Shown here one piece after another: positions 6,758 through 46,637 of a DNA stretch of 64,000 nucleotides. Below the pieces are notes generated by a model. That model made no database searches and was not told the DNA's origin. It saw only the letters and a list, made by a program, of their open reading frames with translations. The position numbers were made by a program, and so were the translations under genes. Positions within the stretch are counted from its first letter, which is position 1, and each line of letters opens with the position of its first letter. Origin of the DNA: a virus. Taxonomy: Duplodnaviria > Heunggongvirae > Uroviricota > Caudoviricetes. Location of the stretch: the IMG/VR virus record IMGVR_UViG_651053023_000001, positions 1 through 64,000 of that record; one strand, given 5' to 3'.

Positions 6758-6764
6758 TGGAAGA

Positions 6765-8128: not shown

Positions 8129-8149
8129 TATTATAACTCCATCCATCAA

Positions 8150-8180: not shown

Positions 8181-8203
8181 TATGATTCCTAAATGTTAAT
8201 GAG

Positions 8204-8452: not shown

Positions 8453-8889
8453 GTTTTCTCTCCAGCCTGTGCCAAGGCTTCAACTTCCAAATCGTAAGAC
8501 TCAAACTCATAGTCCTGGTCGTCAACCTCTTCAGGCACTGGCAGTAAATGCCAGGCTGAGTATATCTGACCATTATCAAAACGCTCCTGGCTGTAGAGCG
8601 TCGCAGCTATGAGCGTCAGCGCCGGGCGGTCATAACGGTAAATTTTGCGAACGTCACGGTCAACGAGACGACCGAAATTACCATAACCGCGCTCCAGTAA
8701 TAATTTTTTAATTTCCGGCCAGTATGGACCATAGCTGCGGTACAGGCGGGGATTTTTCAGTAATCGCCCGCGTAGCCCTGACAGGAAGAAATCAACGTAT
8801 TCGTCTTCTGTCTTTCCTAACAACGCCGTACGCAGTACCGCCTCAAGATATGTTTTATTCGGTTTTATTGTATCAGATAGTGTGGCCAT
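8449..8889 (-). CDS. ulx: Ulx-like protein (upstream of lxc)
   Basis: 146-aa ORF between darB and lxc, overlapping lxc start by 4 nt. Confidence 0.5.
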   Translation of the reverse strand: MATLSDTIKPNKTYLEAVLRTALLGKTEDEYVDFFLSGLRGRLLKNPRLYRSYGPYWPEIKKLLLERGYGNFGRLVDRDVRKIYRYDRPALTLIAATLYSQERFDNGQIYSAWHLLPVPEEVDDQDYEFESYDLEVEALAQAGEKT

Positions 8890-8922
8890 ATTATGCGACG
8901 CCCGGCGAACCGGGCGCTCCTG

Positions 8923-20986: not shown

Positions 20987-22073
20987 TCGTATACAGAATG
21001 AATCTGCCTGGTTAGCACTGATAGAACAGTATAAAGACAATTGGGAACTGGCAGCGAAAGAGTTGCTTGATATTGAGTTAACACCTCATCAAGCAAAAAT
21101 TATTAACGCGATAAAGAACACCGGAGCCAAAGTCACTGCCACCACACCACATGGTATTGGGGAAACCTCTATTGTGGCAGTGATTAGCATCCTGCAAACA
21201 ATACTGTATTCGTGTTCCCGTACAGTGGTTGTTTCTCCTGCTATTAACGATAGTCGAAAAACAATAATTGACTATATGTTCCGTTATTGGGAGCGAGTTA
21301 CCCAAAAACACCCTTTTCTTGGCAATCATTTCAGAATGCACCCTGACAAAGGGTTGGTGCATATCAGTGAAACATGGGGATGCGTCTATATAACCTATTG
21401 TCTGAATAACGAAGTGTCTCTGGCTGGTTTTACTGGACCGCACGATCTTTTCATCGTTATTAACTCGGCGGAAATCAGCGATCGCGCTCATGCAGTGATA
21501 ACTGGCAATTTAACCAATTATGACTCGCGCCTGCTGTTGCTGTCGAAACCATCGGAACGCGAGAAAGGGTACTTTTATGATTCGCATCACCGGTTGGCCC
21601 ATAGTAAAAACAATCCTGCTGGTTTTTTCACGGCGATAACTCTAAACACAGAGGATTCGCCTCTCGTTTCTGAAGCATATCTTGAATTCAAAGCCAAAGA
21701 GTTTGGTGGGCGCAATAGCGATGAATATCGCCGATTGATCTTGGGGAAATTTCCCGGGATTCGGGAGTTGATGGAAAAGTCATCTGTTCCCCGTAATATG
21801 CACTTCACAATGACTGACGGTAGTAAATGGGTAGTGCCTACGATCGTGATCGCCAAACACCATGCGAAACATCACGCTCAAAAACACAACTCCAGCACAT
21901 TAGACTGGCTGAAGGCCTATACAATACCGTTATTCTCGGCAAACCATAACGCTATAGCTGAATGGGCTAAACAAATCCCCTGGCAGGATGTGGCTGAAGA
22001 GGCATTTGTCGAAAAACCTCCGAGAGATTTGCACGAGCACTGTTGGCTGACATCAGAAAAGAGCTTCTCGTGA
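20979..22073 (+). CDS. hypothetical protein with weak resemblance to a degenerate terminase-type ATPase fold
   Basis: 364 aa; segment TPHQAKIINAIKNTGAKVTATTPHGIGETS...LFIVINSAEIS loosely resembles terminase ATPase Walker A/B regions but lacks the canonical lysine. Confidence 0.5.
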   Translation: MINRIQNESAWLALIEQYKDNWELAAKELLDIELTPHQAKIINAIKNTGAKVTATTPHGIGETSIVAVISILQTILYSCSRTVVVSPAINDSRKTIIDYMFRYWERVTQKHPFLGNHFRMHPDKGLVHISETWGCVYITYCLNNEVSLAGFTGPHDLFIVINSAEISDRAHAVITGNLTNYDSRLLLLSKPSEREKGYFYDSHHRLAHSKNNPAGFFTAITLNTEDSPLVSEAYLEFKAKEFGGRNSDEYRRLILGKFPGIRELMEKSSVPRNMHFTMTDGSKWVVPTIVIAKHHAKHHAQKHNSSTLDWLKAYTIPLFSANHNAIAEWAKQIPWQDVAEEAFVEKPPRDLHEHCWLTSEKSFS

Positions 22074-22076
22074 GGT

Positions 22077-22105
22077 AAAAATCCCGCCGATTGGCGGGAT
22101 TTCTT
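22077..22105. terminator. bidirectional terminator (AAAATCCCGCC-gatt-GGCGGGATTTCTTT)
   Basis: Perfect stem flanked by an A-run and a T-run, between convergent transcription units. Confidence 0.6.
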
Positions 22106-22413: not shown

Positions 22414-25390
22414 TATTTAGCTCCTTTGCCACACCTAATAACAGTTCCAGCAATCCGTCACCATTCATCAGTGATGCGGCAGCGGCCTCTTTGTCATGAT
22501 ACAACTGAAGAGCCATAGAGAATACTTCCGTTGCTGACGTTTTGGAAATAGTCGGGGATTTCTGCCGAATTTTCCCAGTGTTACTTACTGAGGCTGGCGG
22601 GTATACCTTCGCCATATAAATATTACTCAATCGAGATCTGAAGCACCATTCAGGCTTGCCACGCCCACCGATATTAACGAAAGATGGCTTATCCCCTTCA
22701 ACATTGGCCTTCAGGAATGACCGGGCTTTCTCTAACAAACCAGGGTTACTGTACTCAAGATGATGACCCAGCTCGTGCCACAGTGCACTTGCATTTTCAT
22801 CGTTCAAATTGACAGCAACAACACCATTAAGATTTGCATATGCCCTTCCCTTGTGGTGAACCACCTTTGATAAGGTCGAAATTTTACCGCCGGTCAGGCG
22901 ATAAATATCAGCAAGTTCCTTGCGCAGGTCTATCCCACCATTCTGTCCAGCGCGGGCTTCTTCCACTTCTTCCGTGATAAAAGAGTCGGCCCACTCAAGA
23001 GCTTTTTCTTCAGATACGGATGAGTTTGCGATCGCACTGTTCATGGCAGATAACACTTTCTCGTGGACCGAACCCATACTTCGCTGATTCATTTGCCAGC
23101 GTGTCTGCGGGTTGTATGAGAATCGCTTAAGTAGTTGGTCAAGCTGCTCAAGTTCTTCTTCACTGACATACTTTTTAGCCTCACCAATAATGCCAGGGAG
23201 AATATTGCCGTTAGGATTAAACGCTCGCGAAAGGAAGAGTTTCAGCGCCCCCATGCCCTCCGATGCTTCAATATCACCAATAACCCGGTTAACAATGGCC
23301 GCACTCTTCGGATTAGCATCCGCCAACGCCCTGGCTACAATTTGCAGGGACGATACGACCTCACGCTGCATATCAGTCCTGATCTCATCAATAAACTCTG
23401 GCGTTATGCCGTGCTCTTTAAGGATATCCCTGCCTTCCGCCGTTACCCCATCGATATCACCGACATGTTTATTAACCTGACTTTGCAATGCCTTAAATGC
23501 CTTCAGAATTCCACGGGCATCATCAGCTTTACTAACGGCCTTCCTGAATGCTGGCAAGAAGTCTGAGTTAACCTCATTTTGTTGATCGGCCCACTGAATG
23601 GAGGCTTCTTTCATCTCGTCCAGAGTCAGATCACCCAACGCGGTATGGTCTGTGAATATGAGCGACAACCTCTGAACCATTTCTGCCAATGGTGATGCCG
23701 AATGCGCCGCGCTAAGGAATGCTTTCACCCTGGTTGGGCGAATGGAAAACCAGTCAATAGCTGGTGGCATATCTCCGTTTTTTATCGCCTGCGCTATCTC
23801 GTCAAAGCCATCGCGCCCAAGGGAGGATGCGTGATTTAACAAGCCGCGAAGTAACGAATTGCTGATACCGAATAATCGGCACCATTTTTTCACGTCGGCA
23901 ACAGGCATTCGAACAAAATGCGCAAGCACTTGTACAAGCTGTTCATCCTGGGGATCTGTGCGGGAAAGCAGCCTGATCAGATGAATAATGTCTTTGATGC
24001 CGGATGCCCGATGTAATAGCAAACTGGTATACGGAGCAACACCGTTGTAACTACCGCCGGAAACGGACTCGAAAAGACCGCCGGATATCCCTTGCATGCC
24101 TTCGTATTCCAGTTCCTGAGACACCTGGCGAAGGATATCCTGTAACGACACATCGCCGCCGCCAAACATATCCCCGAGCGCCTGGCCCTGGTGCTGTAAC
24201 TCATCATTGATACGTTGCGCCATCAACTTAAAGGCGGTGGCCATACGCTTCGCGCTACGGTTATTCGCGACGATGAACAACGCGAGTGCTTTCACTTCCG
24301 GGGCCGTTTCGCTGAACATATCCCCCTGAGCAATAACATCGGTAATATGCTGGCCTGACTCCTTCGATTGCCTTACCAGGTCTACCGCATCTTTCAATGC
24401 CGCCAGCGCCTTTTTATCGAGGCTATCCGCTGTCTCAATGCCATCAACAATAGTTGTCACAGCCTGCTTGTGCGCTTCTCCTGATAAAGCCTGCATCTGG
24501 ACAAAATCATTGGCTGCCGCATTAAGCGCCGTCAGAACATTACGCATATCCGGATCAGGTTCTTCTGCAACCATCCTTACCAGGCGCGCATCCTTATATG
24601 CCTTGGCAAAGATCGCGTTTTGTATACGGTCAACAAGTTGCCGTGTTGGTCGCCCATCTTCAGTTACAAGGCCAGCCGCCTGTGTGGCACCAACTTGCGT
24701 CATGAATCCGCGAATAAACGCGTCATTACTGCGGCTAAGCAGATCTCCGCTTTCTGACGGGTTAAACAACGCCATCATCGCCGGTGTTATGCTGTCGGCA
24801 TCAACAAAAGCCTTTTCACTGGCTGCCATTTCCTGGAGATCAGAAATATTTGAGTCCTTGGCAAACTGAACACGGTCAACCTTCGTTAACCGGCGGCGCA
24901 CCAGTACCGGAGCCGTCATTGATTCAACCTTTTCAGGCCGTATGCCGAATTCGGTCGCATGTTCAATCAGGTACTCCCGATACCGATCCGCATTACCGTC
25001 CTGATAGGCTTTGATGATCCCCATGGTCCGTCCATTACCTGACTCAACGGCATTGTCCTCACCAATTATCGGCGCGCCATGGCTGGATAAACCGGAATCA
25101 GTAAGCTGAGCAGGCCGCAAATCTTTGGATATCTGGTTAACCTGAAGAAGGCTGGATGCGCGGGTCCGGTCGCGCGGCTGAAGTTCCTGGGGATAGTCAG
25201 GATTAATTTTCCCATCCAGAGTATTGGATACCAAAAGAGCTGAGGCATCGACGATATCAAACGCTGTTTTTACCTCGTCTCCCTTCGCTGTCACCACATA
25301 CGAAACCCGCCCATAATCGGGCAGGTTCTTTAGCAGCTCGATCAGCGTTTCTATGCTGGTGGCCATTACCACCTGATCGCTTAAGCTCAT
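22403..25390 (-). CDS. ddrB: DdrB-like large Dar-system protein
   Basis: 995-aa ORF downstream of darA/ddrA in the same operon; assignment by size and synteny. Confidence 0.6.
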   Translation of the reverse strand: MSLSDQVVMATSIETLIELLKNLPDYGRVSYVVTAKGDEVKTAFDIVDASALLVSNTLDGKINPDYPQELQPRDRTRASSLLQVNQISKDLRPAQLTDSGLSSHGAPIIGEDNAVESGNGRTMGIIKAYQDGNADRYREYLIEHATEFGIRPEKVESMTAPVLVRRRLTKVDRVQFAKDSNISDLQEMAASEKAFVDADSITPAMMALFNPSESGDLLSRSNDAFIRGFMTQVGATQAAGLVTEDGRPTRQLVDRIQNAIFAKAYKDARLVRMVAEEPDPDMRNVLTALNAAANDFVQMQALSGEAHKQAVTTIVDGIETADSLDKKALAALKDAVDLVRQSKESGQHITDVIAQGDMFSETAPEVKALALFIVANNRSAKRMATAFKLMAQRINDELQHQGQALGDMFGGGDVSLQDILRQVSQELEYEGMQGISGGLFESVSGGSYNGVAPYTSLLLHRASGIKDIIHLIRLLSRTDPQDEQLVQVLAHFVRMPVADVKKWCRLFGISNSLLRGLLNHASSLGRDGFDEIAQAIKNGDMPPAIDWFSIRPTRVKAFLSAAHSASPLAEMVQRLSLIFTDHTALGDLTLDEMKEASIQWADQQNEVNSDFLPAFRKAVSKADDARGILKAFKALQSQVNKHVGDIDGVTAEGRDILKEHGITPEFIDEIRTDMQREVVSSLQIVARALADANPKSAAIVNRVIGDIEASEGMGALKLFLSRAFNPNGNILPGIIGEAKKYVSEEELEQLDQLLKRFSYNPQTRWQMNQRSMGSVHEKVLSAMNSAIANSSVSEEKALEWADSFITEEVEEARAGQNGGIDLRKELADIYRLTGGKISTLSKVVHHKGRAYANLNGVVAVNLNDENASALWHELGHHLEYSNPGLLEKARSFLKANVEGDKPSFVNIGGRGKPEWCFRSRLSNIYMAKVYPPASVSNTGKIRQKSPTISKTSATEVFSMALQLYHDKEAAAASLMNGDGLLELLLGVAKELNNAD

Positions 25391-27685: not shown

Positions 27686-28297
27686 TTAATTTCCTGCTTT
27701 CAGTTGCTTAAGACGACGTTTGAGTTCGCCATTCCGTGCCTTTTCGTTATTGAGTCGGCCCGTCTCCTTATCCAGCTTCGCCCGCAAATCAGTGATCTGC
27801 TGTTGATTGAAAGACACCGAATTCTGCGCGGACTTATAAGCGGCAACCACCTGAGCATTCCGCTGTTTTGCTTCTTGCAGGCGCTGAAAGTTGGATTTAA
27901 CTGCCGGTTTCTTGTCTACCGGATTGGCAACACGCTTCGCTTTGGCGATCAGTGATTTCTGGAATTTTGCGGAGTTTTTGCGGGCCGCCTGTCCCATGAC
28001 GGTACCAAGCGTCTTGATATCCGGCGACTGAGCGTTAGGAATAGCTTTTCCATTCAGTTTCACAGACGATATATCGCCAGTATCGTTTACCTGTATGGCA
28101 AGAATTTGTCCGTCGTTAAGAACCAGCTTTGCGGTTTTAACTTTAACGCCATCTTTCGTTGTTGCGCGGTTGCTGGAGTCAACCTCAATTACCGTAACCC
28201 CGGTTTTATTGATCGCCGCGATAAGGGATTTCAGCCCCTTTTCATTAACCTGGTCAAAATCGACCGTTGCATACTTATTTTTCGTCATCTGACACAT
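27686..28297 (-). CDS. hdf: Hdf-like protein
   Basis: 203-aa ORF immediately upstream of darA. Confidence 0.5.
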   Translation of the reverse strand: MCQMTKNKYATVDFDQVNEKGLKSLIAAINKTGVTVIEVDSSNRATTKDGVKVKTAKLVLNDGQILAIQVNDTGDISSVKLNGKAIPNAQSPDIKTLGTVMGQAARKNSAKFQKSLIAKAKRVANPVDKKPAVKSNFQRLQEAKQRNAQVVAAYKSAQNSVSFNQQQITDLRAKLDKETGRLNNEKARNGELKRRLKQLKAGN

Positions 28298-28718
28298 CCT
28301 GTGCGAGATTTATTACGTAACTTCTGCGGATTTGCTGAGTAACAGGGAAAATCCGATACAACGGGTTAATGAACGAGTCGCCATGCGTAACCATGACGTT
28401 GAAATGCCACAGTCGCTCTCCTTTACCCATATATTCAGTGGGTATGTACAACCATTCACTGTTTTCGCCCTGTTCAGCCGACGTCAGACAACGTTGTTCG
28501 CCTTCAATCACTGTCGTCGGCTTCTGAACATCGCGGATCCAATATCTGACCGTTGCGCCGCGCAAAAACGGGAATTTAGACCGGTATTTGAACGGCACCC
28601 GGATGAAACCCGGTTTAATTTCCACATCACCAAGTTCTAAGTGCGTGATGTCCTTGCGTTTTAGCAAATAGCGATCGGCTAAGGCTAACGCAAGAACGCA
28701 TACACCCCAGCCAATCAT
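28275..28718 (-). CDS. LydB-like antiholin (by position)
   Basis: 147-aa ORF directly downstream of a holin-like gene, 4-nt overlap. Confidence 0.45.
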   Translation of the reverse strand: MIGWGVCVLALALADRYLLKRKDITHLELGDVEIKPGFIRVPFKYRSKFPFLRGATVRYWIRDVQKPTTVIEGEQRCLTSAEQGENSEWLYIPTEYMGKGERLWHFNVMVTHGDSFINPLYRIFPVTQQIRRSYVINLAQDVSDDEK

Positions 28719-29044
28719 TTCCCGCCTCCCTTTTTCACCAAACTTGTAAGAACATTCAGAATGCTATCGATATTCACTCGTTTCATCCCTGAAATCACCT
28801 CATGACCGTTATTGCTGGCTATCGTTACCATTAAGTACGTAATTGATAACTCCCAGCCCTCGTGTTGCCCCAATAGGTACGCCACCGCGCCAGCTGTCAC
28901 TGCAACAAAGATCTCCGTAACCAATCCTAACAAATTGCCAGACTGGCGACCGTCTCGGACATCCATCAGGAACGTGCCTATCCCACCAATTACTGAAAGC
29001 AGGAGCGCAATAGCAACTGGAGCTAATTCCTGTGTGTCAAGCAC
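28715..29044 (-). CDS. holin-like membrane protein (LydA-like)
   Basis: 109 aa with three hydrophobic transmembrane segments and a charged C-terminus. Confidence 0.5.
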   Translation of the reverse strand: MLDTQELAPVAIALLLSVIGGIGTFLMDVRDGRQSGNLLGLVTEIFVAVTAGAVAYLLGQHEGWELSITYLMVTIASNNGHEVISGMKRVNIDSILNVLTSLVKKGGGK

Positions 29045-29111
29045 AAGTTCCCTCCTACGTTGTCAGGAGGTAATGGTATGCAAAGTAACTTCTCAACCGG
29101 TCATTTGTTGC

Positions 29112-29393
29112 TTAAGAGGCATTTCTATTGAGGTGCGAATCGATAATCCTTTGTAACTTTTCAAGAATGAGCCTGTTATTGATGCTGCAAATAATAGTCA
29201 CGCAATTCTGAAGACTTTCATCCATACCCTTATATTCCGCGAAATACATGCCTATAAAGCCTGCAAGTACGGCAGCAATACACTCGGCCATCAATTGCCT
29301 GCATGACGCTTCGTAACGTTTTTCACGAACCCCATTCAGAAACGAATGCACCCCGCCAAGGATGGAGAGGAGCATTATTGTGAAATCACACAT
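29112..29393 (-). CDS. small membrane protein, holin-like
   Basis: 93 aa with two hydrophobic segments, upstream of the lyd-like genes. Confidence 0.4.
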   Translation of the reverse strand: MCDFTIMLLSILGGVHSFLNGVREKRYEASCRQLMAECIAAVLAGFIGMYFAEYKGMDESLQNCVTIICSINNRLILEKLQRIIDSHLNRNAS

Positions 29394-29520
29394 AACTATT
29401 TCCTTAATAGTGAATTAAATATCATTGGGAAACGGTATGTACTTTGTGATTTCCACACATACTGGTTTTTGTTAATTAAAATCCGCAGCTTGCTATAAAT
29501 AACGATAGTGAGCAGAAAAT

Positions 29521-30081
29521 ATGCTAATAGGCTATGTACGCGTATCAACAAATGAACAAAACACTGCTTTACAACGAAACGCTCTTGAAAGCGCAGGATG
29601 TGAGCTAATTTTTGAGGACAAGGCGAGCGGCAAAAAGGCTGAACGCCCTGGGTTAAAAAAGGTTCTCCGTATGCTTTCCAGAGGTGACACCCTAGTCGTA
29701 TGGAAGTTAGATCGTCTTGGGCGCAGCATGCGTCACTTAGTTGTGCTGGTGGAAGAGCTGCGTGACAGAGGCATTAACTTCCGGAGTCTCACTGACTCCA
29801 TCGACACCAGTACACCAATGGGGCGCTTTTTCTTTCACGTAATGGGGGCGCTGGCTGAAATGGAACGTGAGCTTATCGTTGAACGTACACGCGCTGGACT
29901 TGATGCAGCTCGCGCAGAAGGTCGTATAGGTGGACGTCGGCCTAAATACCAAGAAGAAACATGGCAGCAAATGCGGCGATTGCTCGAGAAGGGCATCCCC
30001 CGTAAGCAGGTTGCAATCATCTATGATGTGGCTGTTTCCACGCTTTATAAGAAGTTTCCGGCGTCATCATTTCAATCCTAA
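29521..30081 (+). CDS. cin: Cin serine DNA invertase
   Basis: 186 aa; serine recombinase N-terminus MLIGYVRVSTNEQN...; abuts a cix site and the invertible segment. Confidence 0.92.
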   Translation: MLIGYVRVSTNEQNTALQRNALESAGCELIFEDKASGKKAERPGLKKVLRMLSRGDTLVVWKLDRLGRSMRHLVVLVEELRDRGINFRSLTDSIDTSTPMGRFFFHVMGALAEMERELIVERTRAGLDAARAEGRIGGRRPKYQEETWQQMRRLLEKGIPRKQVAIIYDVAVSTLYKKFPASSFQS

Positions 30082-30098
30082 ACCTTGGTTTAAGAGAA
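30073..30098 (-). other. cixL crossover site
   Basis: Bottom strand reads TTCTCTTAAACCAAGGTTTAGGATTG, a 26-bp site of the hix/gix/cix type with central AA. Confidence 0.75.
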
Positions 30099-30940
30099 CT
30101 CGGTACCAGCGGTGAAAAGATCCCCCTGTTGAGCACGGCTAACACATGGAGTTCACGCCAGACTTTCAACGGCGGGATCACCGGGGCGCTGGCAGGGAAT
30201 GCCGACACCGCGACGAAATTGAAAACAGCACGCTCGATTGGCGGTGTGGCATTTGATGGCTCGGCCAATATCAATCTTCCAGGTGTAAATACAACAGGTA
30301 ACCAGAACACCACGGGGAATGCTGCTACCGCGACGAAACTTGCGACGGCAAGAAACATCAACGGTGTTAAATTTGATGGTTCTGTGGACATTTCGATACC
30401 AACAATTACGTCCAGAGGGCGTGTTACTGCGCTCACCGGTACAACACAAGGTGCTGCTACTGGATTGCAAATGTATGAGGCGTACAACAACGGCTATCCT
30501 TCTGCTTACGGGAATGTGCTTCATCTTAAGGGCGCAACGGCAGTTGGTGAAGGTGAGTTGTTCATAGGTTGGAGCGGTACAAGTGGCGCTCATGCACCTG
30601 TACATGTACGTTCGCGACGAGATACTGATACAGCCAGTTGGTCAGAGTGGGCGCAGGTCTACACATCGAAGGATTCCATCCCTGGTGTAAATACCACGGG
30701 CAACCAGAACACAACCGGAAACGCGGCGTCTGCAACGAAATTACAAACGGCAAGAACTATTGGTGGTGTTTCATTTAATGGCACCGCAAACATCGACCTG
30801 CCGGGCGTGAATAAAACAGGTAATCAGAACACAACCGGTAATGCAGCGACAGCGACCAAGTTACAAACCGCTCGAACTATAAATGGGGTCTCGTTTGATG
30901 GTTCTAAAAATATTGAGCTAACGGCTGAAAATTTAAATCT
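30084..30940. repeat. left inverted repeat of the invertible C segment (~0.85 kb)
   Basis: Reverse complement of 33971..34827; identical translated ORFs on opposite strands (30153..30605 vs 34306..34758). Confidence 0.85.
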
Positions 30941-31097
30941 TGAGCGAACAGTAGAATTAGCCGCTGGGTCATTGCAGAAAAATCAGAACGGCGCGGATAT
31001 TCCTGGAAAGATACCTTCACTAAAAATATTGGTGCATGTCGCGCTTTTCACAGTTCTATTAGTACAGGTGCAGGGAACTGGACAACGGCACAATTGA
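30129..31097 (+). CDS. alternative tail-fibre variable segment Sv', N-terminal part (promoterless until inversion); apparently frameshifted near 31005
   Basis: Shares the IR-encoded repeat-rich region with S; after the IR the reading frame degenerates and stops. Confidence 0.5.
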   Translation: MSTANTWSSRQTFNGGITGALAGNADTATKLKTARSIGGVAFDGSANINLPGVNTTGNQNTTGNAATATKLATARNINGVKFDGSVDISIPTITSRGRVTALTGTTQGAATGLQMYEAYNNGYPSAYGNVLHLKGATAVGEGELFIGWSGTSGAHAPVHVRSRRDTDTASWSEWAQVYTSKDSIPGVNTTGNQNTTGNAASATKLQTARTIGGVSFNGTANIDLPGVNKTGNQNTTGNAATATKLQTARTINGVSFDGSKNIELTAENLNLERTVELAAGSLQKNQNGADIPGKIPSLKILVHVALFTVLLVQVQGTGQRHN

Positions 31098-31813
31098 TTG
31101 AATGGCTGGATTCTCAAGGGGCATTCAATCACCCATACTGGATGTGCAAATGTTCATGGTCGTACGGCAATAATAAAATTATAACCGATACTGGCTGTGG
31201 AACTATTCATCTTGCAGGTTGCGTTATTGAGGTTATGGGTAATAAAGGTGCCATGACCATCCGTGTAACAACACCAAGCACTTCCAGCGGTGGCGGAATC
31301 ACTAATGCTCAATTCACTTATATTAATCATGGTGATGCTTACGCTCCTGGCTGGCGACGAGACTACAACACGAAAAACCAGCAGCCTGCATTTGCTTTAG
31401 GGCAAACAGGACGCAGGGTCGCAAATGATAAAGCTGTTGGCTGGAACTGGAATAGCGGTGTTTATGATGCAGATATCAGTGGTGCATCGACATTAATCCT
31501 CCACTTCAATATGAATGCGGGGAGTTGCCCTGCTGTACAGTTCCGCGTGAATTACAGGAACGGCGGTATTTTTTATCGTTCAGCGCGTGATGGTTATGGC
31601 TTTGAAGCTAACTGGTCAGAGTTTTACACCACAACACGCAAACCCTCTGCGGGAGATGTTGGTGCATATACGCAGGCAGAATGTAACTCAAGGTTATTAC
31701 AGGTATTCGCCTTGGCGGTCTGTCATCTGTTAAGACATGGAATGGTCCCGGCTGGTCTGACAGGTCAGGTTATGTCGTTACAGGTTCAGTTAACGGAAAC
31801 CGTGATGAATTAA
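31094..31813 (+). CDS. Sv' tail-fibre C-terminal part (frame continues from ~30956)
   Basis: This frame is open from 30956 and encodes tail-fibre-like sequence ...KNIGACRAFHSSISTGAGNWTTAQLIEWLDSQGAF...; it overlaps the upstream frame for ~140 nt. Confidence 0.5.
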   Translation: MIEWLDSQGAFNHPYWMCKCSWSYGNNKIITDTGCGTIHLAGCVIEVMGNKGAMTIRVTTPSTSSGGGITNAQFTYINHGDAYAPGWRRDYNTKNQQPAFALGQTGRRVANDKAVGWNWNSGVYDADISGASTLILHFNMNAGSCPAVQFRVNYRNGGIFYRSARDGYGFEANWSEFYTTTRKPSAGDVGAYTQAECNSRLLQVFALAVCHLLRHGMVPAGLTGQVMSLQVQLTETVMN

Positions 31814-31886
31814 TTGATACAACTCAGGCAAGGCCAATTCAGTATTGCATTAATGGAACGTGGTATAACGCGGGGAGTATTTAATT

Positions 31887-32420
31887 ATGATGCACTTAAA
31901 AAATATTACTGCTGGCAACCCTAAAACAAAAGAGCAATACCAGCTAACGAAACAATTTAACATCAAATGGCTTTATACAGAGGATGGGAAAAACTGGTAT
32001 GAGGAACAAAAGAACTTTCAGCCTGATACGTTGAAAATGGTCTATGACCACAACAACGTTATTATTTGTATTGAAAAGGATGTTTCAGCAATTAATCCAG
32101 AAGGCGCAAGCGTCGTTGAGGTTCCTGATATTACAGCAAATCGCCGGGCTGATATTTCTGGTAAATGGATGTTCAAAGATGGCGTAGTGATAAAGCGAAC
32201 TTATACCGAGGAGGAACAGAGGCAGCAGGCAGAGAATGAAAAGCAAAGCCTGTTGCAACTTGTCAGGGATAAAACCCAGCTATGGGACTCACAGCTACGG
32301 CTGGGCATCATTTCCGACAAGAATAAACAAAAATTAACCGAGTGGATGCTCTATGCGCAGAAAGTCGAATCTACAGACACCTCCAGCCTGCCAGTAACAT
32401 TTCCCGAACAACCTGAATGA
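31887..32420 (+). CDS. tail-fibre assembly chaperone U'
   Basis: 177 aa, paralogous to the oppositely oriented U (shared [22 protein letters not shown]...ANRRAD...GKWMFKDG). Confidence 0.75.
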   Translation: MMHLKNITAGNPKTKEQYQLTKQFNIKWLYTEDGKNWYEEQKNFQPDTLKMVYDHNNVIICIEKDVSAINPEGASVVEVPDITANRRADISGKWMFKDGVVIKRTYTEEEQRQQAENEKQSLLQLVRDKTQLWDSQLRLGIISDKNKQKLTEWMLYAQKVESTDTSSLPVTFPEQPE

Positions 32421-32448
32421 GACAAGGCCCGATAGCGGGCCTTAATTT

Positions 32449-32976
32449 TTATTCAGGCTTTTGTGGCCATTCAGGATTTGCCGTATCCACACGGCTGACC
32501 AGAACACTGTAGCGTTCCCATGCTTCCAGTCGTGTGCGTTCCTCGTCTGTTGCCATATTCAACCTGACAGCGCGTTCCAGCGGCTGGATGACTGATTCAG
32601 CTTCGGAAAGCAATGCGGCCTTTTGTGATTCGGCTTGTTGTTGCTGTTCGTCTGCCGTATAAATCCGTTTAACTACAGATCCATCCTTAAACATCCACTT
32701 CCCTGAATCATCGGCACGACGATTGGCTGTTATATCTGGAATCTCAACGACACTAAAGCCTTCGGGATTAAGCGTTGAGGCATCTTTGGTTATGGCAACA
32801 ATAATATTATTTTCGTCGTATACAATCTTTATGGTGTCGTCCTGAAAGTTATTTACTTCCTCATACCAGTTTTTACCGTCTTCGGACCATAACCAGATAA
32901 CATCAAAATTCTTTGTTAGCTGATATTGTTCTTTCGTTTTAGGATTTCCAGACTTAATATTTTTTAAATGCTGCAT
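32449..32976 (-). CDS. tail-fibre assembly chaperone U
   Basis: 175-aa paralogue of U' directly downstream of S. Confidence 0.75.
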
Positions 32977-32979
32977 AAT

Positions 32980-35900
32980 TTACACCTGTGCTACGTTATA
33001 CCATGTGCCATTGATGTATTTTTGTATTGGTCTGAAGATGGCTTCATCATCGCCATCTACTTCACCAATGATTCTTAATCCGGTAATTGCGTGTCCGGCT
33101 TTTTCATAACGACCACCACGCGCCATCAATTGAACAACACGCGTACCCAGGCGAACATCTTTCACATAGCGTGAGTCAAAATTGCCATAATTTCCGGGAA
33201 TAATTTGCGCACCGCAAAGCCAGTTACCGTTATTGTCCATGTACGCCTGACCATCGGTGCCATTGGCTGTCCTTGAGTTATTAATCATGTAGATGCCAAA
33301 TTGCTTATTTCCCAGACCGCCAATCATAAATTTGCGGTCGGCATGGTCCTGACGGAGCAAGGCCTGAGCACCATCAGTGGATACCGCATTACGTCCCATA
33401 ATAACGTTCTGGTCACGCATATTAATCCACATGCCTGTACTGCTGTTAATAGCAAAACGGTCTGAAAGTGTCTCCCCTGAAACATTAAGGCCACGCCCCA
33501 TCGAAACAGCGCCAGTAGCGTTATTAATCCATAATGGCCTTAATCCGTTATAAGTCCCCATGTTGTCACCGGAGTTTGTCAACATGAAGTATGTATTTGA
33601 ACCATCATTACGAATAAAGAATCCGTAATTACCATAAGCAATACGTAGGCCGTTTGCTGATTTTGATATGACTTCGCCATTTACAATGGCATTGACAAGA
33701 ACATACAAAGCATCCCATTTAAGATTCATCAGGTCTTTTGTTGTGGTGCTTTGTTTGCTTCTCCATTTGAAATATTCATTGCCGTTGTCGCCTGTTTCAA
33801 ACCACATGTATGAATCAGTGTCACCATCAGCATCATTTTTAAATCCAATCTTCGCCCAGTCAGTATTTCGAATCCAGGCAAGGATTGAGTCATTTTTAAA
33901 AGTAAGCCCACCGGACAAAGTATCGCCTGAACGCTGAACGGCATTATTTGCTTTATTAATAAATTCCTGTAGATTTAAATCTTCCGCCGTTAGCTCAATA
34001 TTTTTAGAACCATCAAACGAGACCCCATTTATAGTTCGAGCGGTTTGTAACTTGGTCGCTGTCGCTGCATTACCGGTTGTGTTCTGATTACCTGTTTTAT
34101 TCACGCCCGGCAGGTCGATGTTTGCGGTGCCATTAAATGAAACACCACCAATAGTTCTTGCCGTTTGTAATTTCGTTGCAGACGCCGCGTTTCCGGTTGT
34201 GTTCTGGTTGCCCGTGGTATTTACACCAGGGATGGAATCCTTCGATGTGTAGACCTGCGCCCACTCTGACCAACTGGCTGTATCAGTATCTCGTCGCGAA
34301 CGTACATGTACAGGTGCATGAGCGCCACTTGTACCGCTCCAACCTATGAACAACTCACCTTCACCAACTGCCGTTGCGCCCTTAAGATGAAGCACATTCC
34401 CGTAAGCAGAAGGATAGCCGTTGTTGTACGCCTCATACATTTGCAATCCAGTAGCAGCACCTTGTGTTGTACCGGTGAGCGCAGTAACACGCCCTCTGGA
34501 CGTAATTGTTGGTATCGAAATGTCCACAGAACCATCAAATTTAACACCGTTGATGTTTCTTGCCGTCGCAAGTTTCGTCGCGGTAGCAGCATTCCCCGTG
34601 GTGTTCTGGTTACCTGTTGTATTTACACCTGGAAGATTGATATTGGCCGAGCCATCAAATGCCACACCGCCAATCGAGCGTGCTGTTTTCAATTTCGTCG
34701 CGGTGTCGGCATTCCCTGCCAGCGCCCCGGTGATCCCGCCGTTGAAAGTCTGGCGTGAACTCCATGTGTTAGCCGTGCTCAACAGGGGGATCTTTTCACC
34801 GCTGGTACCGAGTTCTCTTAAACCAAGGTATTGGATAACAGCAAGAACGCTTGTTTTGGCCAGAATATCGCGACCAACTGACGTTAAGTCAGTCTGAGAA
34901 ACAGTGTCTGTACCGGTAAAGTACGGCAATTTATTTGCGCCTGTCGCAAGACCAGCAAGCGCGGTTAAAGTTGCATCAAGTGGCTGTTTCCCTGCCAGCG
35001 CATTTGTCATTGTTGTCGCAAAGTTCGGGTCATTGCCCAGTGCTGCTGCAAGCTCATTCAGGGTATCAAGAGCTTCAGGTGATGAGCCGACCAATGCAGA
35101 GATAGCAGCCCGTACGTAAGCAGTCGTAGCGATCTGCGTATTGTTTGTGCCCTGTGCAGCCGTAGGCGCAGTAGGGACACCCGTTAATGCAGGGCTTGCC
35201 AAAGGCGCTTTGAGAGCCAAGGCATTGTTGATAGTTGTGCTGTAATTCGGGTCGTTATTGATCGCAGCCGCTATTTCTTTCAGCGTATCCAGTGTGCCAG
35301 GCGCACCGTTGATAAGTGCAGTTATAGCTGCCTTAACAAAGGCTGTATTTGCGATCTGCGTGCTGTTTGTACCTTGCGCTGCCGTCGGCGCTGTTGGCGT
35401 TCCTGTCAGACTCGGGCTTTCTATTGGCGCTTTGGTATCAGCCAGATCTTTTATAGACTTAACAGCTTTAGGGGTAGCCGCCATTGTTTCGCTGTCGCTG
35501 TTAGTTGCGCTACTGAGCTGAACTAATCCCTTTTGCGTTGTGCTTGCATCCTGCGCCGTATACTTGCTTTTCGCCAGATCGTAGGCTTTTTTAACTGCCA
35601 GCGAACTTGCCGCAACATCACTTCTGGTACTGGTTACAGAGTCTGAAATATCAATGCCGATAGTGCGGTTGATACGCTCTGATGTATCAATCATCTCTTG
35701 GGTAATGGCAGATACACCAGCAGGAATATTCACCGTACAAACAAGCAGCTCTCCATCTCCTAACTGATATGAATCGGTATAGGTTCTGGCAATAAATTCA
35801 GCCGCATGAATATGTGACGCTGTATTAACCTGATAGGTATCTTCTCCAAGGAGGTATCTTCCCTTCAGCACAATTGCATATTTCTTGCCTGCACTAAGTG

Positions 35901-36186
35901 CAAGAGAAATATCCTTACGGTGCTGAATAGTTACCTGGTAGAATTCACCAATATCCACCGACGCCGCGCCTGCGGTTTTATCACCATCCACTGAGGTGAT
36001 TAACAGGTTCATCCCACCGCCAGGCTTAGGTAAGAAACCGGCATAAAATCCCGGGTCAACAATCCCCCTGAATTTTCGGTTTAGCGCGGCTGACAGATAT
36101 GGTTCGTGGTATTGCACATCAGCCACCAGAGCCAACGACTCGGGTGATGGGTAAGTAACTGATGTAACAACTGTAACGTCATTCAT
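32980..36186 (-). CDS. tail-fibre protein S (constant Sc part fused to variable Sv in this orientation)
   Basis: Start set at ATG 36186 (AAGGA upstream; track ORF starts 36273); repeated PGVNTTGNQNTTGNAATATKL motifs; spans cixR. Confidence 0.8.
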   Translation of the reverse strand: MNDVTVVTSVTYPSPESLALVADVQYHEPYLSAALNRKFRGIVDPGFYAGFLPKPGGGMNLLITSVDGDKTAGAASVDIGEFYQVTIQHRKDISLALSAGKKYAIVLKGRYLLGEDTYQVNTASHIHAAEFIARTYTDSYQLGDGELLVCTVNIPAGVSAITQEMIDTSERINRTIGIDISDSVTSTRSDVAASSLAVKKAYDLAKSKYTAQDASTTQKGLVQLSSATNSDSETMAATPKAVKSIKDLADTKAPIESPSLTGTPTAPTAAQGTNSTQIANTAFVKAAITALINGAPGTLDTLKEIAAAINNDPNYSTTINNALALKAPLASPALTGVPTAPTAAQGTNNTQIATTAYVRAAISALVGSSPEALDTLNELAAALGNDPNFATTMTNALAGKQPLDATLTALAGLATGANKLPYFTGTDTVSQTDLTSVGRDILAKTSVLAVIQYLGLRELGTSGEKIPLLSTANTWSSRQTFNGGITGALAGNADTATKLKTARSIGGVAFDGSANINLPGVNTTGNQNTTGNAATATKLATARNINGVKFDGSVDISIPTITSRGRVTALTGTTQGAATGLQMYEAYNNGYPSAYGNVLHLKGATAVGEGELFIGWSGTSGAHAPVHVRSRRDTDTASWSEWAQVYTSKDSIPGVNTTGNQNTTGNAASATKLQTARTIGGVSFNGTANIDLPGVNKTGNQNTTGNAATATKLQTARTINGVSFDGSKNIELTAEDLNLQEFINKANNAVQRSGDTLSGGLTFKNDSILAWIRNTDWAKIGFKNDADGDTDSYMWFETGDNGNEYFKWRSKQSTTTKDLMNLKWDALYVLVNAIVNGEVISKSANGLRIAYGNYGFFIRNDGSNTYFMLTNSGDNMGTYNGLRPLWINNATGAVSMGRGLNVSGETLSDRFAINSSTGMWINMRDQNVIMGRNAVSTDGAQALLRQDHADRKFMIGGLGNKQFGIYMINNSRTANGTDGQAYMDNNGNWLCGAQIIPGNYGNFDSRYVKDVRLGTRVVQLMARGGRYEKAGHAITGLRIIGEVDGDDEAIFRPIQKYINGTWYNVAQV
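33971..34827. repeat. right inverted repeat of the invertible C segment
   Basis: Reverse complement of 30084..30940. Confidence 0.85.
34813..34838 (+). other. cixR crossover site
   Basis: TTCTCTTAAACCAAGGTATTGGATAA on top strand, inverted relative to cixL, inside the S gene at the Sc/Sv junction. Confidence 0.75.
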
Positions 36187-36197
36187 CAAGCATATCC

Positions 36198-36632
36198 TTA
36201 TGCTGTTGTCGTGTTTATGGCCATAACTGCGGTATATGTTTTGCCCACATACAGCGAGTCTTCCTGGACACAAATAATGGCGATTGGCTTGTTCTCGTTA
36301 TCCAGAACAACCAGAGTGTTGAATGGGTAGTTTTTCCCTTCCTGCAACTGGCTTTGATCAAGGTCCATTCGGACAGTAATTATCCCGCCTGAGTAGGTTG
36401 GGACGAGGTTGATGGTGCAAAATTGACTGGTCAGTTCTGCCAGATCGAAAACCTTTGGCAGTTCTCCAATCTCATAAGTGCCATCTCCTTTCTTAGTAAC
36501 CAGTGAACTGGTACCGAAAACGGCCTTGCTGATTAAAAATCGAGAGCCTTTGTTAATGGACGATTCAGCGCGCCGCTGATAGTAATAGTCCAACAACTGA
36601 CTCTTATAGAGGTTTGTTGAGACGTCAGACAT
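36198..36632 (-). CDS. tail protein R-like (by synteny upstream of S)
   Basis: 144-aa ORF immediately upstream of S on the same strand. Confidence 0.5.
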   Translation of the reverse strand: MSDVSTNLYKSQLLDYYYQRRAESSINKGSRFLISKAVFGTSSLVTKKGDGTYEIGELPKVFDLAELTSQFCTINLVPTYSGGIITVRMDLDQSQLQEGKNYPFNTLVVLDNENKPIAIICVQEDSLYVGKTYTAVMAINTTTA

Positions 36633-36710
36633 GATTTTCCCTAATCAATGTTGTGAAGCCTCATTGTAAGAGAAGTAACTTGTCACCCCGCCCTGCGGAC
36701 GGGGTGATTG

Positions 36711-37550
36711 TCAGGCGTCGCTATCCAGCAACAAATCATCTGCGCGTGTGCGATCAAACGTAGGTGTCGCTTTCACAATAGTGCCACCAGGCGTTGCGGT
36801 GATCGGGGCGCTAATCGACGTAACTCCAGTAAGCGAAGTTGTATCCGAAGTTTCAAACCAGCAGAATGCTTTTTCGGTATCAGAAATCTCGTTCAAAGTG
36901 ATCATGTCGGCCTGTTCATTTACAACAACCGACAAATAGAGCGTAAGCCCATCAAACACTATATGCAGTGGCAGTAGAGGCTTTACGAACTGATTAAACT
37001 TTCTGAGAATTTCTTCTGTAATTGCGGACTGATCTATCGTGCCAGTAATCCCCATTGTCCGGGCCAGGTCGTTTATGGGAATACTGATCATCCCTCTGGA
37101 AGTCAGAAACATCTCGCCGAATGTGCCGCCGGTAGTCTCCAGTGTGCTTTCTGGTATTAGAACCGTGCCATAGGGATGACGCTCAAGGTCCACCGGTGCA
37201 TATATCGGATCCCATAAAACAGAAATACCGTTAAATTCGCGGTAAATTGTCTGGTTTATAGGGCGTTCAGTCCCCTTAAAGTGAATCTCATCAAGACGCT
37301 GTTGTAACAACATCGGAACGGAAGATGAGTTCGACGTTCTGATAGTAAAGAACTGGCCAAGTTCATTTGTCCTGGTCTCCAGATCCTCCTTGCTCATGGA
37401 AAAAATAGACTTCCGGTTGGTAATTCGCTCCAACCATGGGTCAACAAAGGTATCCATCATTGACTGAACCAAATCAGCCAATGATTTATAGAGCAATGAC
37501 TTTTGCTTAGCTGATGTAAGCCGGTTATTAAACCAGGAACGCTGCATCAC
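36711..37550 (-). CDS. baseplate protein (gene 16-like, by synteny)
   Basis: 279-aa ORF in the tail/baseplate block, overlapping the next gene by 4 nt. Confidence 0.45.
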   Translation of the reverse strand: MMQRSWFNNRLTSAKQKSLLYKSLADLVQSMMDTFVDPWLERITNRKSIFSMSKEDLETRTNELGQFFTIRTSNSSSVPMLLQQRLDEIHFKGTERPINQTIYREFNGISVLWDPIYAPVDLERHPYGTVLIPESTLETTGGTFGEMFLTSRGMISIPINDLARTMGITGTIDQSAITEEILRKFNQFVKPLLPLHIVFDGLTLYLSVVVNEQADMITLNEISDTEKAFCWFETSDTTSLTGVTSISAPITATPGGTIVKATPTFDRTRADDLLLDSDA

Positions 37551-39336: not shown

Positions 39337-42300
39337 TCAACTCTCGCGTAGTCATTCATCAACGGATCATCAATTGACAGTGGCACCGTGCGCATAACGC
39401 CCGGTTGAGGCGTGCTGACCTTTACGACAGTTCCCTGGCCTTTCGCCGAGTCTTTAGTGTGCTCTTCAATCCTGGCAAGCAATGAGGTCATCTGCGCAAA
39501 CAGCCGCTTCGTTTCACCATCAAGTGAAACGGTATTATCAGCCAACTGCATTGTCGGCTTGGCACCGGAGCCGCCAAGGTCACTAATAACCTGTCCGTCT
39601 ATCTGCATACGACCGGTTGGTTGCTGCAAATCGTTGGCGGCAGTCGTCACCTGGGACGTGGAGGCTGGTTCAGGCGCATTATTTTTCCGCATCCCCGGCG
39701 AGTTGCGGAGTTTATCGAATAGTCCATCAATCCCCATTTGTGCGCCGAGCTGGTCAAAGTAACTTGAGTTGTTGGCCACCGGACGCGCCTCTTCAACTGG
39801 CATCGGGGTATCAACATACACATTGCCAGCTGCTGTTGCGGTCCCCTTCCCTCGTGCACGTTCTTCGAGCGTTCCCTGAACGACTTCCCGACGCATACCC
39901 CGGCCATTCATGAATTTGTTGACCAGATCGTTAACGCCAACAGCATTGCCGATTTTGTCTACCAGACCGCCTTTCTCAAACGGGCTATCACCAGGGGTAA
40001 ACGCCAAGCCAGTAGACTGATCGATAACAGCGTTATCAGGCAGTGGTCCCCTCACTCCATATTGCGCCCCACCCTGTGCTCCTGCTCCAGGTGTATAGAT
40101 TTCACCACCTAAATAGCGAGCACGATGAGTATTGACCTTGATCGCGTACTCACGGTTTTCTTTCGATAAGTCACCTGTGCCTTTTTTCCACTTATTGATA
40201 GTGCCAAACCCAGCGTTATATGCAGTGATGGCCTCGTTTAAGTCTCCATTGGCTTGCTTCAGATACTTGCTCATGAGAAGAGCCGCAGCTTCTGCCGATT
40301 TCACAGGATCAAACGATTCACCTTCAGCTAAGCCAGTCTCTTCACGAGCAATCCCCGTGAACTGAAACATTCCCAGAGCACCGGTTTGGGATTTTGCATA
40401 CGGATTACCACCAGATTCAGTTGCAGCAATCGCGTAAAGAGTGCCTTCTGGAAGACCGTATTTATTCTCTAGTTCGGCAAAATACGGAGCCAACTTATCG
40501 AGATTTGCCTTACCTTCAGCGCCAAGACTTCCGACTTTTACATCTAAGTTGCCATTGTTGTAAGTATCCGCAGCTTTCTGAATGTCATTCCTGGTGCCAG
40601 TAGTATTAAGCGACGATGATGATGAGCTATTTTGACCAATAGCATTATCAATTTTCTGCAACGCGCTATTGCCCGTTTCTACGGCATTTGCATTGATAAT
40701 CTGATTGGCAGTTTCTTTAACTGTTTTATTGCTATCTTTCGCCGTATCTAGGGATGCATTTACAACACGAGTGACAATATTAGCCTTTTTAGGGGTATAT
40801 TCAGTCTTAGGAGCATTGTCCTCCTGACTTTCTTTAGCTGGTGTTTTTAATTCAGGTGTAACCTCTTTCGCATCCGCTTTGTTGACTAGCTTTGATGCAA
40901 CCCAGGCCACAGGGGTGCTCTGAACAGCGGCATCTGCAACCTCACCTGAAAGCTCTTTTGCGGCACTCCATAGATTACTGCCAGCTTCTTTAATGTATTT
41001 CCCTGGGTTCTTAATGAAATCAATTGCACTATCAATTGCATCACTGAAAACCTGTTTCAGGTTATCGACAGTAAAGAAGTTTTTGATGGCGTCTAATTTT
41101 TCGTTCAGGTTCTTTGTTGTGTCACTGAACCATGCTGAAATAGCATCACCAATCTTTGCAGTATAATCACTAAATGTCGTGGATATAGTATCACCAAGGT
41201 TAGAAATATATGTTTCTAAATTGGTAATCCCACTATCAATGGCCTGGGCAATACTTTCCGTCGAAAATGATTGCAACATATTGCCGATATCCTCAAATCC
41301 AAGTGATTTGAGAACGCCGCCAATGGCACTGCTAATACCAGATACCAGTCCTCCCATATCGAGAACGTTAGCCAGTGTATAAGCCGCTTTTTGCTGAAAA
41401 GATGGATCTTCCCCATCCTTAAGCCCAAAGGTCCGACGTTGTGCTTCTGTATCATTCCAACCGGTTACCGCATCATAGATACCTCCAGCCACCGTGCCGA
41501 CTAGCGGAATTGCGCGTAAAGCCCCCTTTGCAAGAGCCTTAACACCTAGTTTCCCCAATCCCTTAGTTGCAAGTTTTCCGGCACCGCGAGTAGCCAATTC
41601 GCCAGCTTCTTTGGCAGCAGCTTTTTTCCCACCAAAGCCCAATAAGCTTGCAACTTTTTTTATACCTAAAGCGCCTAGTGCCATCGAGCCAACTTTCTTT
41701 AGTACCCCACGGCCAAAAATAAGGGAAGCAATACCACCGGCCCCCTTCCCTAACAGGCTAAATAGTTTGGACAGCAAGCCGCCCTTCTTTTTCCCGGTGT
41801 TTTTGGCTATCTGATCAAGGGCGCTGAGAATCTTGTCATTGCCCTCTTTAATTTCGCTGGTCTGCTCCTGAAGTTCCTGAACCGTCCGTTTTTGGGTGTT
41901 AACCTGAACGACATCGGCACTATTTTGCGATTTACGCCTAAAAAAACCTTTTCTACGGCTGTTATCGTCATTGCCACGAATCACATCGGCAATAGACTTT
42001 CTGGCACCATTAAGCGATCCACCAACTTCTTTTGATATCCCGCCAAGCTCCTTCCCTGCTGCCCACAATGGACCAGCAACGGCATAACCTAACGCATCGA
42101 CGGCACGAGTCTCTGAAGGGTTACCTATGCCTTCAGCTACTTTTGACAGTTTTTTTAATAAACCTGATTCAGCATTTAGACGCTCATCATCCTCTTTGCG
42201 CCTGGCCTTTTCAGCACGTTCAGCACGGGCATCTTCCGCTGCGGCCTTACTCCCTGACTTTCCAATAAAACGACCACGCGCATCGCGTTGGTTTTGGCTT

Positions 42301-45218: not shown

Positions 45219-45274
45219 TTAACAGATTCTACGAGTTGTCATTTGTGACAGTATGCTCGCAATCGTAGTGATTA

Positions 45275-45814
45275 CTACCACCAACTGCTAGCTTTCTTCT
45301 CTCTAGCTTTTCCTTCGCTTTGCAGTAAATCTTTACTTCCTGTAGAAATATTTCTATTTGCATCAGCCTCAGACTGAATTACATCTGTCTTAGCTGCTCT
45401 CTCCTTCAACTCCTGCTCTATAAAATCGTTTTCTCGCTGGACACGAGCCGCTTTTGCTTGCAGTTCGAGTTTCATGCTTTCGAGTTGCAGCTTGCGAAGC
45501 TCATCCTCATAAGCTTGATCTCGCTTCTTGTCATTTGCTAGCTCGGCTTCTCGTTTCGCTCTACGTTCATTTTCTGCAGCAACACGCTGTTTTTCGCGTG
45601 CAGCAGCGGCAGATGCTGCTTTTTCTCTTCTAATACGTTCAGCTTGTGCTTGTTGGCGAATAAGTTCTTTTCTGGCATCCTCAGCTTGCTGCTCTTTAGC
45701 TCGCCCTTCATTTTCCGCTTGAGCAATAGCAGCAATTTGACTTTGCAACGAGTTAGCCAAGGCAGTGCCTACACTAAACGTAGAAAAGATTAGAAATAAA
45801 ATAATTTTATTCAT
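45275..45814 (-). CDS. secreted charged coiled-coil protein (TolA domain II-like Ala/Glu/Lys/Arg repeats)
   Basis: N-terminal signal peptide MNKIILFLIFSTFSVGTALA followed by ~140 aa of highly charged helical repeat; AT-rich. Confidence 0.55.
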   Translation of the reverse strand: MNKIILFLIFSTFSVGTALANSLQSQIAAIAQAENEGRAKEQQAEDARKELIRQQAQAERIRREKAASAAAAREKQRVAAENERRAKREAELANDKKRDQAYEDELRKLQLESMKLELQAKAARVQRENDFIEQELKERAAKTDVIQSEADANRNISTGSKDLLQSEGKAREKKASSWW

Positions 45815-45817
45815 AAA

Positions 45818-46339
45818 TTATTTCTTTTCTGGACAAGTAGCATTTGGCTGAATTCGAGTTTCATTATCTTTAGTTGAAATAAGCACAGCAAGCCCCGTTG
45901 TAAACTGGCATGCTTTACCAACTTGAGTTGAAGTGAACACCTTAGTTCCTTCTTTATAAGTCAGTGAAACACCTTCAACAATTGTTTTATCACTAACCAA
46001 AGAACCAGCCGCTGCACCAAGAGCCGCACCACCAGTACCGCCAGCTACAGCACCCAGTGTCGATGTGCCTTTAACATTATAACCGGCAACGCCCCCAGCA
46101 ACAGCTCCCAGTACCGCACCAAATGTCTGTGCCGCTTCTTTATTAGCTTTATTATCAACTTTCACTTTAGCTGGAAGCACAGAGATAATATTGACTGTCT
46201 TTGTTTCCTGCTTCGAATTCAATTGAGCGGTATCATAAACATCGGCAGCATAATCAGCACCGCTAGATTGACACCCAGAAAGAAGAATTGCAGATACAAC
46301 AAGAGCGCATAAAGTATACTTTTTAGACATAAGAATCAT
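45818..46339 (-). CDS. glycine-zipper lipoprotein (SlyB/Pcp-like)
   Basis: Lipobox ILLSGC; glycine-zipper GAVLGAVAGGVAGYNV...GAVAGGTGGAALGAAAGSL; AT-rich. Confidence 0.55.
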   Translation of the reverse strand: MILMSKKYTLCALVVSAILLSGCQSSGADYAADVYDTAQLNSKQETKTVNIISVLPAKVKVDNKANKEAAQTFGAVLGAVAGGVAGYNVKGTSTLGAVAGGTGGAALGAAAGSLVSDKTIVEGVSLTYKEGTKVFTSTQVGKACQFTTGLAVLISTKDNETRIQPNATCPEKK

Positions 46340-46620
46340 CCCAGAAAAACAAAAACCGGCGAGAAGTTACCACGAGAACGGAAAGTAAACAAGAATACTC
46401 CCATTGACTTATATCAATTAATCAACTTTTTATAAGCTATCCCTAACTTATTGTGTATAGCTGAAAAGTCAGAGACAAGTTCACCATCTGCATTATTTCT
46501 TAAGTTAATAGTTTATTGCTAACTTAATTTATGCATCGACTATTGATATCCATCTTAAAGTTACAATATCCCTCTGCATTATTTTTCATCACAAATAATA
46601 TATCTATTGCACGACACTAA

Positions 46621-46637
46621 CCTGCTCTAATAAATTT
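46621..46637 (+). promoter_or_regulatory. C1 operator-like site upstream of the canonical immI module
   Basis: CCTGCTCTAATAAATTT, 2 mismatches to consensus. Confidence 0.5.

Follow-up and report, generated by a model that had tools for sequence, protein, structure and literature searches.

The 64,000-nucleotide (nt) stretch of DNA analysed here (the window; positions 1 to 64,000 of IMG/VR record IMGVR_UViG_651053023_000001, a virus of the Caudoviricetes) carries an invertible tail-fibre segment of the kind known from phage P1, which raises the question of why its inverted repeats are longer than those of P1 and whether both alternative fibres can still be made. The window is collinear with P1 (NC_005856) from P1 coordinate 1, the centre of lox, at 97 to 98% identity, with the usual variable regions replaced. 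On its sequence, the element is very probably a P1-like phage-plasmid carrying a C segment that is inverted by the DNA invertase Cin and acts as a tail-fibre host-range switch. Membership of the C-segment/Cin family, as judged by homology, is not in doubt, every sequence feature that we tested being in agreement with it. The system is of an already understood kind, and what is new is the allele, which combines a homogenised long repeat with a one-sided output.

The prediction of a Cin-driven switch made from the DNA sequence alone (hereafter the original prediction) was borne out by comparison with P1, to which Cin, its enhancer, the promoters, and the cix crossover sites are identical (Table 1). 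Cin matches the Pfam families Resolvase (E 4.6e-51) and HTH_7 (E 1.9e-18), corresponding to an N-terminal catalytic domain and a C-terminal helix-turn-helix domain, and is encoded beside the segment, with the cin stop codon 4 nt before the crossover. Enhancers of the Cin type are Fis-dependent. The interval originally proposed for the segment, 30073-34838, coincides exactly with the outer edges of the two 26-base-pair (bp) cix sites, and the inverted orientation of these sites about a central AA was likewise correct, the core reading TT at cixL (AA on the minus strand) and AA at cixR on the plus strand. The 40 nt around each site are identical to P1 cixL and cixR, and the crossover was placed as in the P1 annotation. 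The cix pattern has exactly two matches in the window and none in 100 shuffles; no extra cix site with up to 3 mismatches was found in the window, where relaxed core matches were no commoner than expected by chance. A multiple-inversion system of the Min type was rejected, as there are only two cix sites.

The placement of the open reading frames (ORFs) and the pairing of U with U' in the original prediction agree with the ORF map and with P1, and alignment with the P1 C segment (NC_005856, 31660-37841) gave the same gene order and orientation, with longer arms in the window. The fibre gene S (32980-36186, minus strand) is a continuous ORF of 1068 amino acids (aa) that begins at the P1-homologous ATG at 36186 and runs across cixR; its product matches Pfam Phage_fiber_2 and Gp34_trimer. 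The crossover falls within codon 454 of S in P1 and in the window alike and joins, in one frame, a constant N-terminal part encoded outside the segment to a replaceable C-terminal part. The left arm shares the reading frame of S, and inversion would therefore leave Sc and Sv' in register. The chaperones U and U' agree with their P1 counterparts at 171 of 176 and 169 of 178 aligned positions, respectively, stop counted. Sv, U, and U' are intact; Sv' is broken.

The greater length of the repeats has a simple structural basis. A repeat search of 28000-37000 returned a single dominant inverted repeat, with arms of 866 nt separated by 3030 nt. The arms differ at four positions (99.5% identity), two of them in the outer cix half-sites, outside the crossover (30079 and 30081), and two near the inner end (30926 and 30930), and are perfectly identical across the 844 nt from 30082 to 30925. 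The P1 repeat, measured directly on NC_005856 in the same way, is 636 nt at 98%, which upholds the earlier estimate of about 0.85 kilobases (kb) here against about 0.6 kb in P1. Measured from crossover to crossover, 4740 bp are invertible here, of which 855 nt at either end belong to the repeat; the corresponding values in P1 are 4256 bp and 625 nt. It had been supposed that only a refinement of boundaries was at stake, but the arms are longer because the shared shaft carries two extra 40-residue fibre repeats in each of them. In each arm, the outer 155 nt match P1 (98.9% for the left arm against the P1 left arm), the inner 104 nt are P1-homologous, and the middle 607 nt (30230-30836 in the left arm) stand in for 364 nt of P1; the arms diverge at the position homologous to the P1 repeat boundary. 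At the protein level, S has two clean 40-residue insertions relative to P1, at residues 501-540 and ~657-697, each a further copy of the fibre repeat GN(A/S)xTATKL...GVxFDGSxNI, such that the repeat-encoded part reads repeat-repeat-domain-repeat-repeat instead of the repeat-domain-repeat of P1, and S is 1068 aa long rather than 987. Both alternative genes include the inverted repeat, so a longer shaft is expected in S and S' alike.

The one-sidedness of the output stems from two 1-nt deletions in Sv' relative to P1, GGAAAAG to GGAAAG at ~31006 (A4 to A3) and GGTTTA to GGTTA at ~31693 (T3 to T2). The Sv' frame entered from the repeat stops at 31095-31097; homologous reading continues in the next frame to ~31693 and then in the third, which ends at the P1-equivalent stop 31882-31884, two bases before U'. 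The predicted Sc-Sv' product after inversion is 790 aa instead of ~1053 aa and lacks the receptor-binding tip. The description of the switch as intact in the original prediction therefore stands for the recombination machinery and the S/U output, and fails for Sv' with its two private deletions. When both deletions are repaired, Sv' is a clean 600-codon ORF whose C-terminal 315 residues are identical to P1 S' at 303 positions, and its synonymous to nonsynonymous substitutions relative to P1 (28:12) resemble those of the expressed Sv (48:23), so that the damage must be either very recent or not real. Relatives in IMG/VR are undeleted at the first site in 12 of 12 contigs and at the second in 119 of 119, and an inherited deletion allele was rejected because none of them carries either deletion. 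Programmed frameshifting was also rejected, the two changes being separate, ordinary homopolymer deletions relative to all relatives that jointly shift the frame by two. A silent fibre fragment is also annotated as frameshifted by RefSeq in the P1-like plasmid pPEC1021-1 (NZ_CP162407.1), so the window is not the only element with a decaying silent arm.

Table 1. The C segment, its recombination sites, and the adjoining tail-fibre operon, in window coordinates
Feature	Coordinates	Strand	Evidence and remarks
cin upstream region (predicted promoters P2cin and P1cin, ribosome-binding site)	29399..29520	+	122/122 identical to P1 31538-31659
cin, serine DNA invertase, 186 aa	29521..30081	+	protein 186/186 identical to P1 Cin
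Recombinational enhancer in 5' part of cin	29539..29610		72/72 identical to P1 annotated enhancer 31678-31749
cixL, 26-bp crossover site	30073..30098	-	pattern match, 0 mismatches; crossover 30085/30086
Left inverted-repeat arm	30075..30940	+	encodes residues 454-739, the proximal part of Sv', the same in S and S'
Sv', silent alternative C-terminal fibre segment, disrupted	30086..31884	+	1-nt deletions at ~31006 and ~31693; first in-frame stop 31095-31097
U', fibre assembly chaperone for S', 177 aa, intact	31887..32420	+	168/177 residues identical to P1 U'; Pfam Caudo_TAP E 1.2e-36
U, fibre assembly chaperone for S, 175 aa, intact, expressed orientation	32449..32976	-	170/175 residues identical to P1 U; Caudo_TAP E 5e-37
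Sv, expressed variable C-terminal part of S	32980..34825	-	ORF continuous with Sc; Gp34_trimer at residues 777-887
Right inverted-repeat arm	33971..34836	-	repeat search and base-by-base comparison
cixR, 26-bp crossover site	34813..34838	+	pattern match; crossover 34825/34826
Sc, constant N-terminal part of S (residues 1-454), outside invertible segment	34826..36186	-	nearly identical to P1 Sc
R, first gene of tail-fibre operon	36198..36632	-	142/144 residues identical to P1 R (143/145 aligned positions with stop)
Late promoter LPs homologue, drives R-S-U	36663..36681	-	1 substitution relative to P1 LPs in the 36-nt stretch compared

The longer arm can be traced to other P1-like plasmids. A 591-nt module within it (30230-30820) is shared at 100% identity by ~19 PLSDB plasmids and at 99% or more by 30, and the PLSDB carriers of a near-identical module are all P1-like, non-mobilisable plasmids of Escherichia coli or E. 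fergusonii. The left arm is base-for-base the same as one arm of NZ_CP099360.1 (E. fergusonii) over 30082-30820, with P1-like sequence thereafter. The module was found in 138 PLSDB records (141 places; single copy in 135), in 45 complete E. coli genome records (46 places; single copy in 44), and in nine IMG/VR contigs with one match each. Among these ~180 records, no other case of the long module in both arms was found. The sole two-copy record examined, NZ_AP027414.1 (pEC361_3), has the module tandemly duplicated within one arm, which matches window 30075-30853 and then 30195-30898 again; this duplication is a further fibre lengthening by recombination between repeat units. By megablast, no phage or plasmid had the arrangement of window 29400-36400 (the best matches cover ~84% of the query), and no complete E. 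coli genome had that of 29500-32000; an exact look-up of the 1068-aa S protein gave no match.

Repeat length itself varies widely in this family. The inverted repeat is 165 nt in MH422554.1 and NZ_CP099360.1, 199 + 153 nt in pRHB34-C14_2, 186 + 140 nt in p1540-3, 198 + 129 nt in P7, and 198 + 366 nt in D6, and the longest continuous near-perfect C-segment repeat among the eight elements measured is that of the window. In pPEC1021-1, a D6/P1-like C segment of ~6.5 kb (locus 6557-13037) has an interrupted composite repeat of ~1.7 kb, made up of 531 nt at 99%, 106 nt at 100%, and 534 nt at 94%. That P1-like plasmids vary in the C segment and the fibre region is already on record (PMC6906374). Because the module elsewhere is confined to a single arm, it was most likely acquired first and copied from arm to arm afterwards: one arm would have gained it when the element recombined with another P1-like plasmid, and the second would then have received it by gene conversion. 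The 98% identity between the two arms of P1 itself argues that homogenisation is normal for C-segment systems. Repeat length in such switches varies as 40-residue shaft repeats are gained and lost in modular fashion, and the arms can homogenise; the locus illustrates how fibre length and a shared stem evolve among P1-like phage-plasmids.

How the switch would operate follows from P1. LPs is expected to drive transcription through R and Sc and across cixR into whichever variable half faces Sc. In the sequenced orientation, Sv and U lie behind Sc, which would yield the intact 1068-aa fibre. Cin, a serine recombinase acting with the enhancer inside its own gene, would pair cixL with cixR, invert the intervening 4740 bp, and place Sv' and U' behind Sc, such that the receptor-binding C-terminal half of S and the chaperone that goes with it are exchanged as a unit. 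In the resulting C(-) state, S' would be truncated at 790 aa, before the receptor-binding tip, and the particles would probably lack a functional fibre rather than gain a new host range. Since all cis and trans parts are sequence-identical to those of P1, inversion is expected to occur in this element. MH422554.1 and NZ_CP099360.1 share the same 5.76-kb C segment (locus 6001-11757) between inverted repeats of ~165 nt, with the cin and Sc flanks exchanged, and these opposite orientations indicate that inversion has happened in this family in nature. Work on P1 has established that Cin, by inverting the segment at the cix sites, replaces S/U expression with that of S'/U' and so alters the host range, that P1(S') transduces Shigella flexneri and E. 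coli O3 in an O-antigen-dependent manner, and that inversion is infrequent, induced P1 lysogens giving mixed progeny (bioRxiv 10.1101/2022.07.24.501295).

Several points weigh against the interpretation of the locus as an invertible switch with homogenised arms and a decayed silent side. A single assembled sequence cannot display inversion itself; PLSDB, complete E. coli genomes, and IMG/VR yielded no further element with the module in both arms, making an assembly artefact of the repeat possible; and both Sv' deletions lie in short homopolymer runs, where a sequencing error would mean that the switch is fully intact. If the 866-nt repeat were such an artefact, the real molecule would have the long module in one arm and the assembler would have copied it to the other, as the predominance of single copies in the databases could suggest (135 of 138 plasmids, 44 of 45 complete E. 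coli genome records, and all nine IMG/VR contigs). We regard this as very improbable, because an assembler would not collapse two arms with a 243-nt difference, and those of the window retain the mismatches at 30926 and 30930 and diverge at the P1-homologous boundary. Moreover, S reads without interruption through the right arm and the left arm stays in that frame, and repeat length varies among relatives anyway, from 165 nt to the ~1.7-kb composite. Long arms that are real bring up a different question, namely whether inversion and arm homogenisation proceed to a significant extent through host RecA instead of Cin. Homology of 844 bp is ample for RecA-dependent recombination, and arms that match perfectly, against 98% in P1, point to homologous exchange in the recent past. 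Nevertheless, every Cin component is intact and identical to that of P1, and no other route is needed, which makes a substantial contribution of RecA unlikely.

The status of Sv' has a rival explanation. The switch may instead be functional on both sides, with the frameshifts arising as sequencing or assembly errors in homopolymer runs (AAAA to AAA and TTT to TT), an explanation to which the clean repaired ORF with its Sv-like substitution ratio and a third coding homopolymer deletion, G5 to G4 at 3986 in the mat homologue, lend some weight. Against this, just four single-base indels, three of them non-coding, occur elsewhere in the ~37 kb aligned to P1, and at this background rate the Poisson probability of finding two in the 944-nt unique part of Sv' is ~0.005. 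Sv' is also dispensable on S-type hosts; for P1 on K-12, cin, Sv', and U' are dispensable and S, U, and R are essential (PMC10695390), which makes real decay biologically plausible. The enrichment of deletions in Sv' and the cleanness of the remaining window favour real decay, and we consider sequencing error the less probable of the two, though the strongest of the alternatives weighed here.

The locus could be a natural variant whose longer shaft module reached both fibres through gene conversion, in which decay of Sv' turned the host-range switch into an ON/OFF switch of infectivity, and in which the 844 bp of homology added RecA-driven flipping to that by Cin; taken as a whole, this combination is speculative and we hold it doubtful. 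If it were true, C(-) particles would be without a working fibre. Few site-specific inversion systems are as well understood as the Cin/C-segment switch, and the finding matters little beyond annotation. For users of such elements in transduction or delivery, only the S/U fibre would be functional as sequenced, and the phage would no longer have the S' host range, which in P1 includes S. flexneri and E. coli O3.

Other parts of the window depart from P1 as well. At 20987-22105, ~1.1 kb of unrelated sequence takes the place of P1 isaA-IS1-isaB (22532-24244), with no IS1; the absence of IS1 and the replacement of isaA-isaB fit a natural P1-like element, not a derivative of the laboratory P1 reference. 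The P1 ref and res-mod-IS5 regions are replaced at 2071-8200, where two divergent antirepressor-like genes, each matching Pfam ANT and ORF6N (2071-3183, minus strand, 370 aa; 5639-6757, plus strand, 372 aa), flank a mat homologue and are surrounded by inverted copies of c4/icd/ant-like DNA 80 to 86% identical to P1 48.1-49.7 kb. The second of these genes is followed by an HTH_3 protein (6887-7360) and then a DUF3944 protein (7376-8128), and a comparable icd-ant insertion at the matching position is known from pSvP1 (PMC6906374). In the mat homologue (~3885-4636), the G5 to G4 deletion at 3986 relative to P1 mat leaves a longest ORF that starts from GTG at 3968, not from the P1-equivalent start near 3885. 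Within the homologue of sit, a putative tail ruler/transglycosylase, 40390-41529 is 85% identical to P1 with 22 gap openings (31 gapped positions) between flanks of 97 to 98%, and this patch looks like a local mosaic. At 45246-46623, approximately the P1 sim region (46.6-48.1 kb), there was no P1 match longer than 300 nt (E<=1e-30), and it seems that the genes for superimmunity have been replaced or are missing.

Among known inversion systems, that of P1 is the closest. Both the P1 reference and the window were sequenced in the C(+) state, in which Sc continues into Sv and U comes next, and Sv/U and Sv'/U' share ~93% DNA identity with P1 over the 3.2-kb interior. The window is unlike P1 in three ways, namely its longer and more perfect repeat, the mosaic origin of the long module, and the frameshifted Sv'. 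The C segments of natural P1-like phage-plasmids (NZ_CP099360.1, MH422554.1, pRHB34-C14_2, p1540-3, pPEC1021-1, P7, and D6) have the same cin-cix-fibre-chaperone architecture and mosaic fibre genes built from the same repeat units; unlike the window, they have the module in one arm and repeats that are short or interrupted, and in several of these plasmids the variable tips differ from the P1/Mu-type Sv and Sv' found here. The G segment of phage Mu (Gin, S-U/S'-U') shares the inversion logic of a serine invertase and has homologous variable tips and chaperones, with ~90 to 91% DNA identity over window 30970-33930, but its invertase is gin, its sites are gix, and the segment is ~3 kb. The inverted repeats of Mu are short (34 bp) because the crossover adjoins the variable part. 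The Min system of p15B has a related invertase and related fibre gene segments, and the P1 annotation notes p15B homology in the C-segment region; that system is shufflon-like, with several crossover sites and many segments shuffled, whereas the window has exactly two cix sites.

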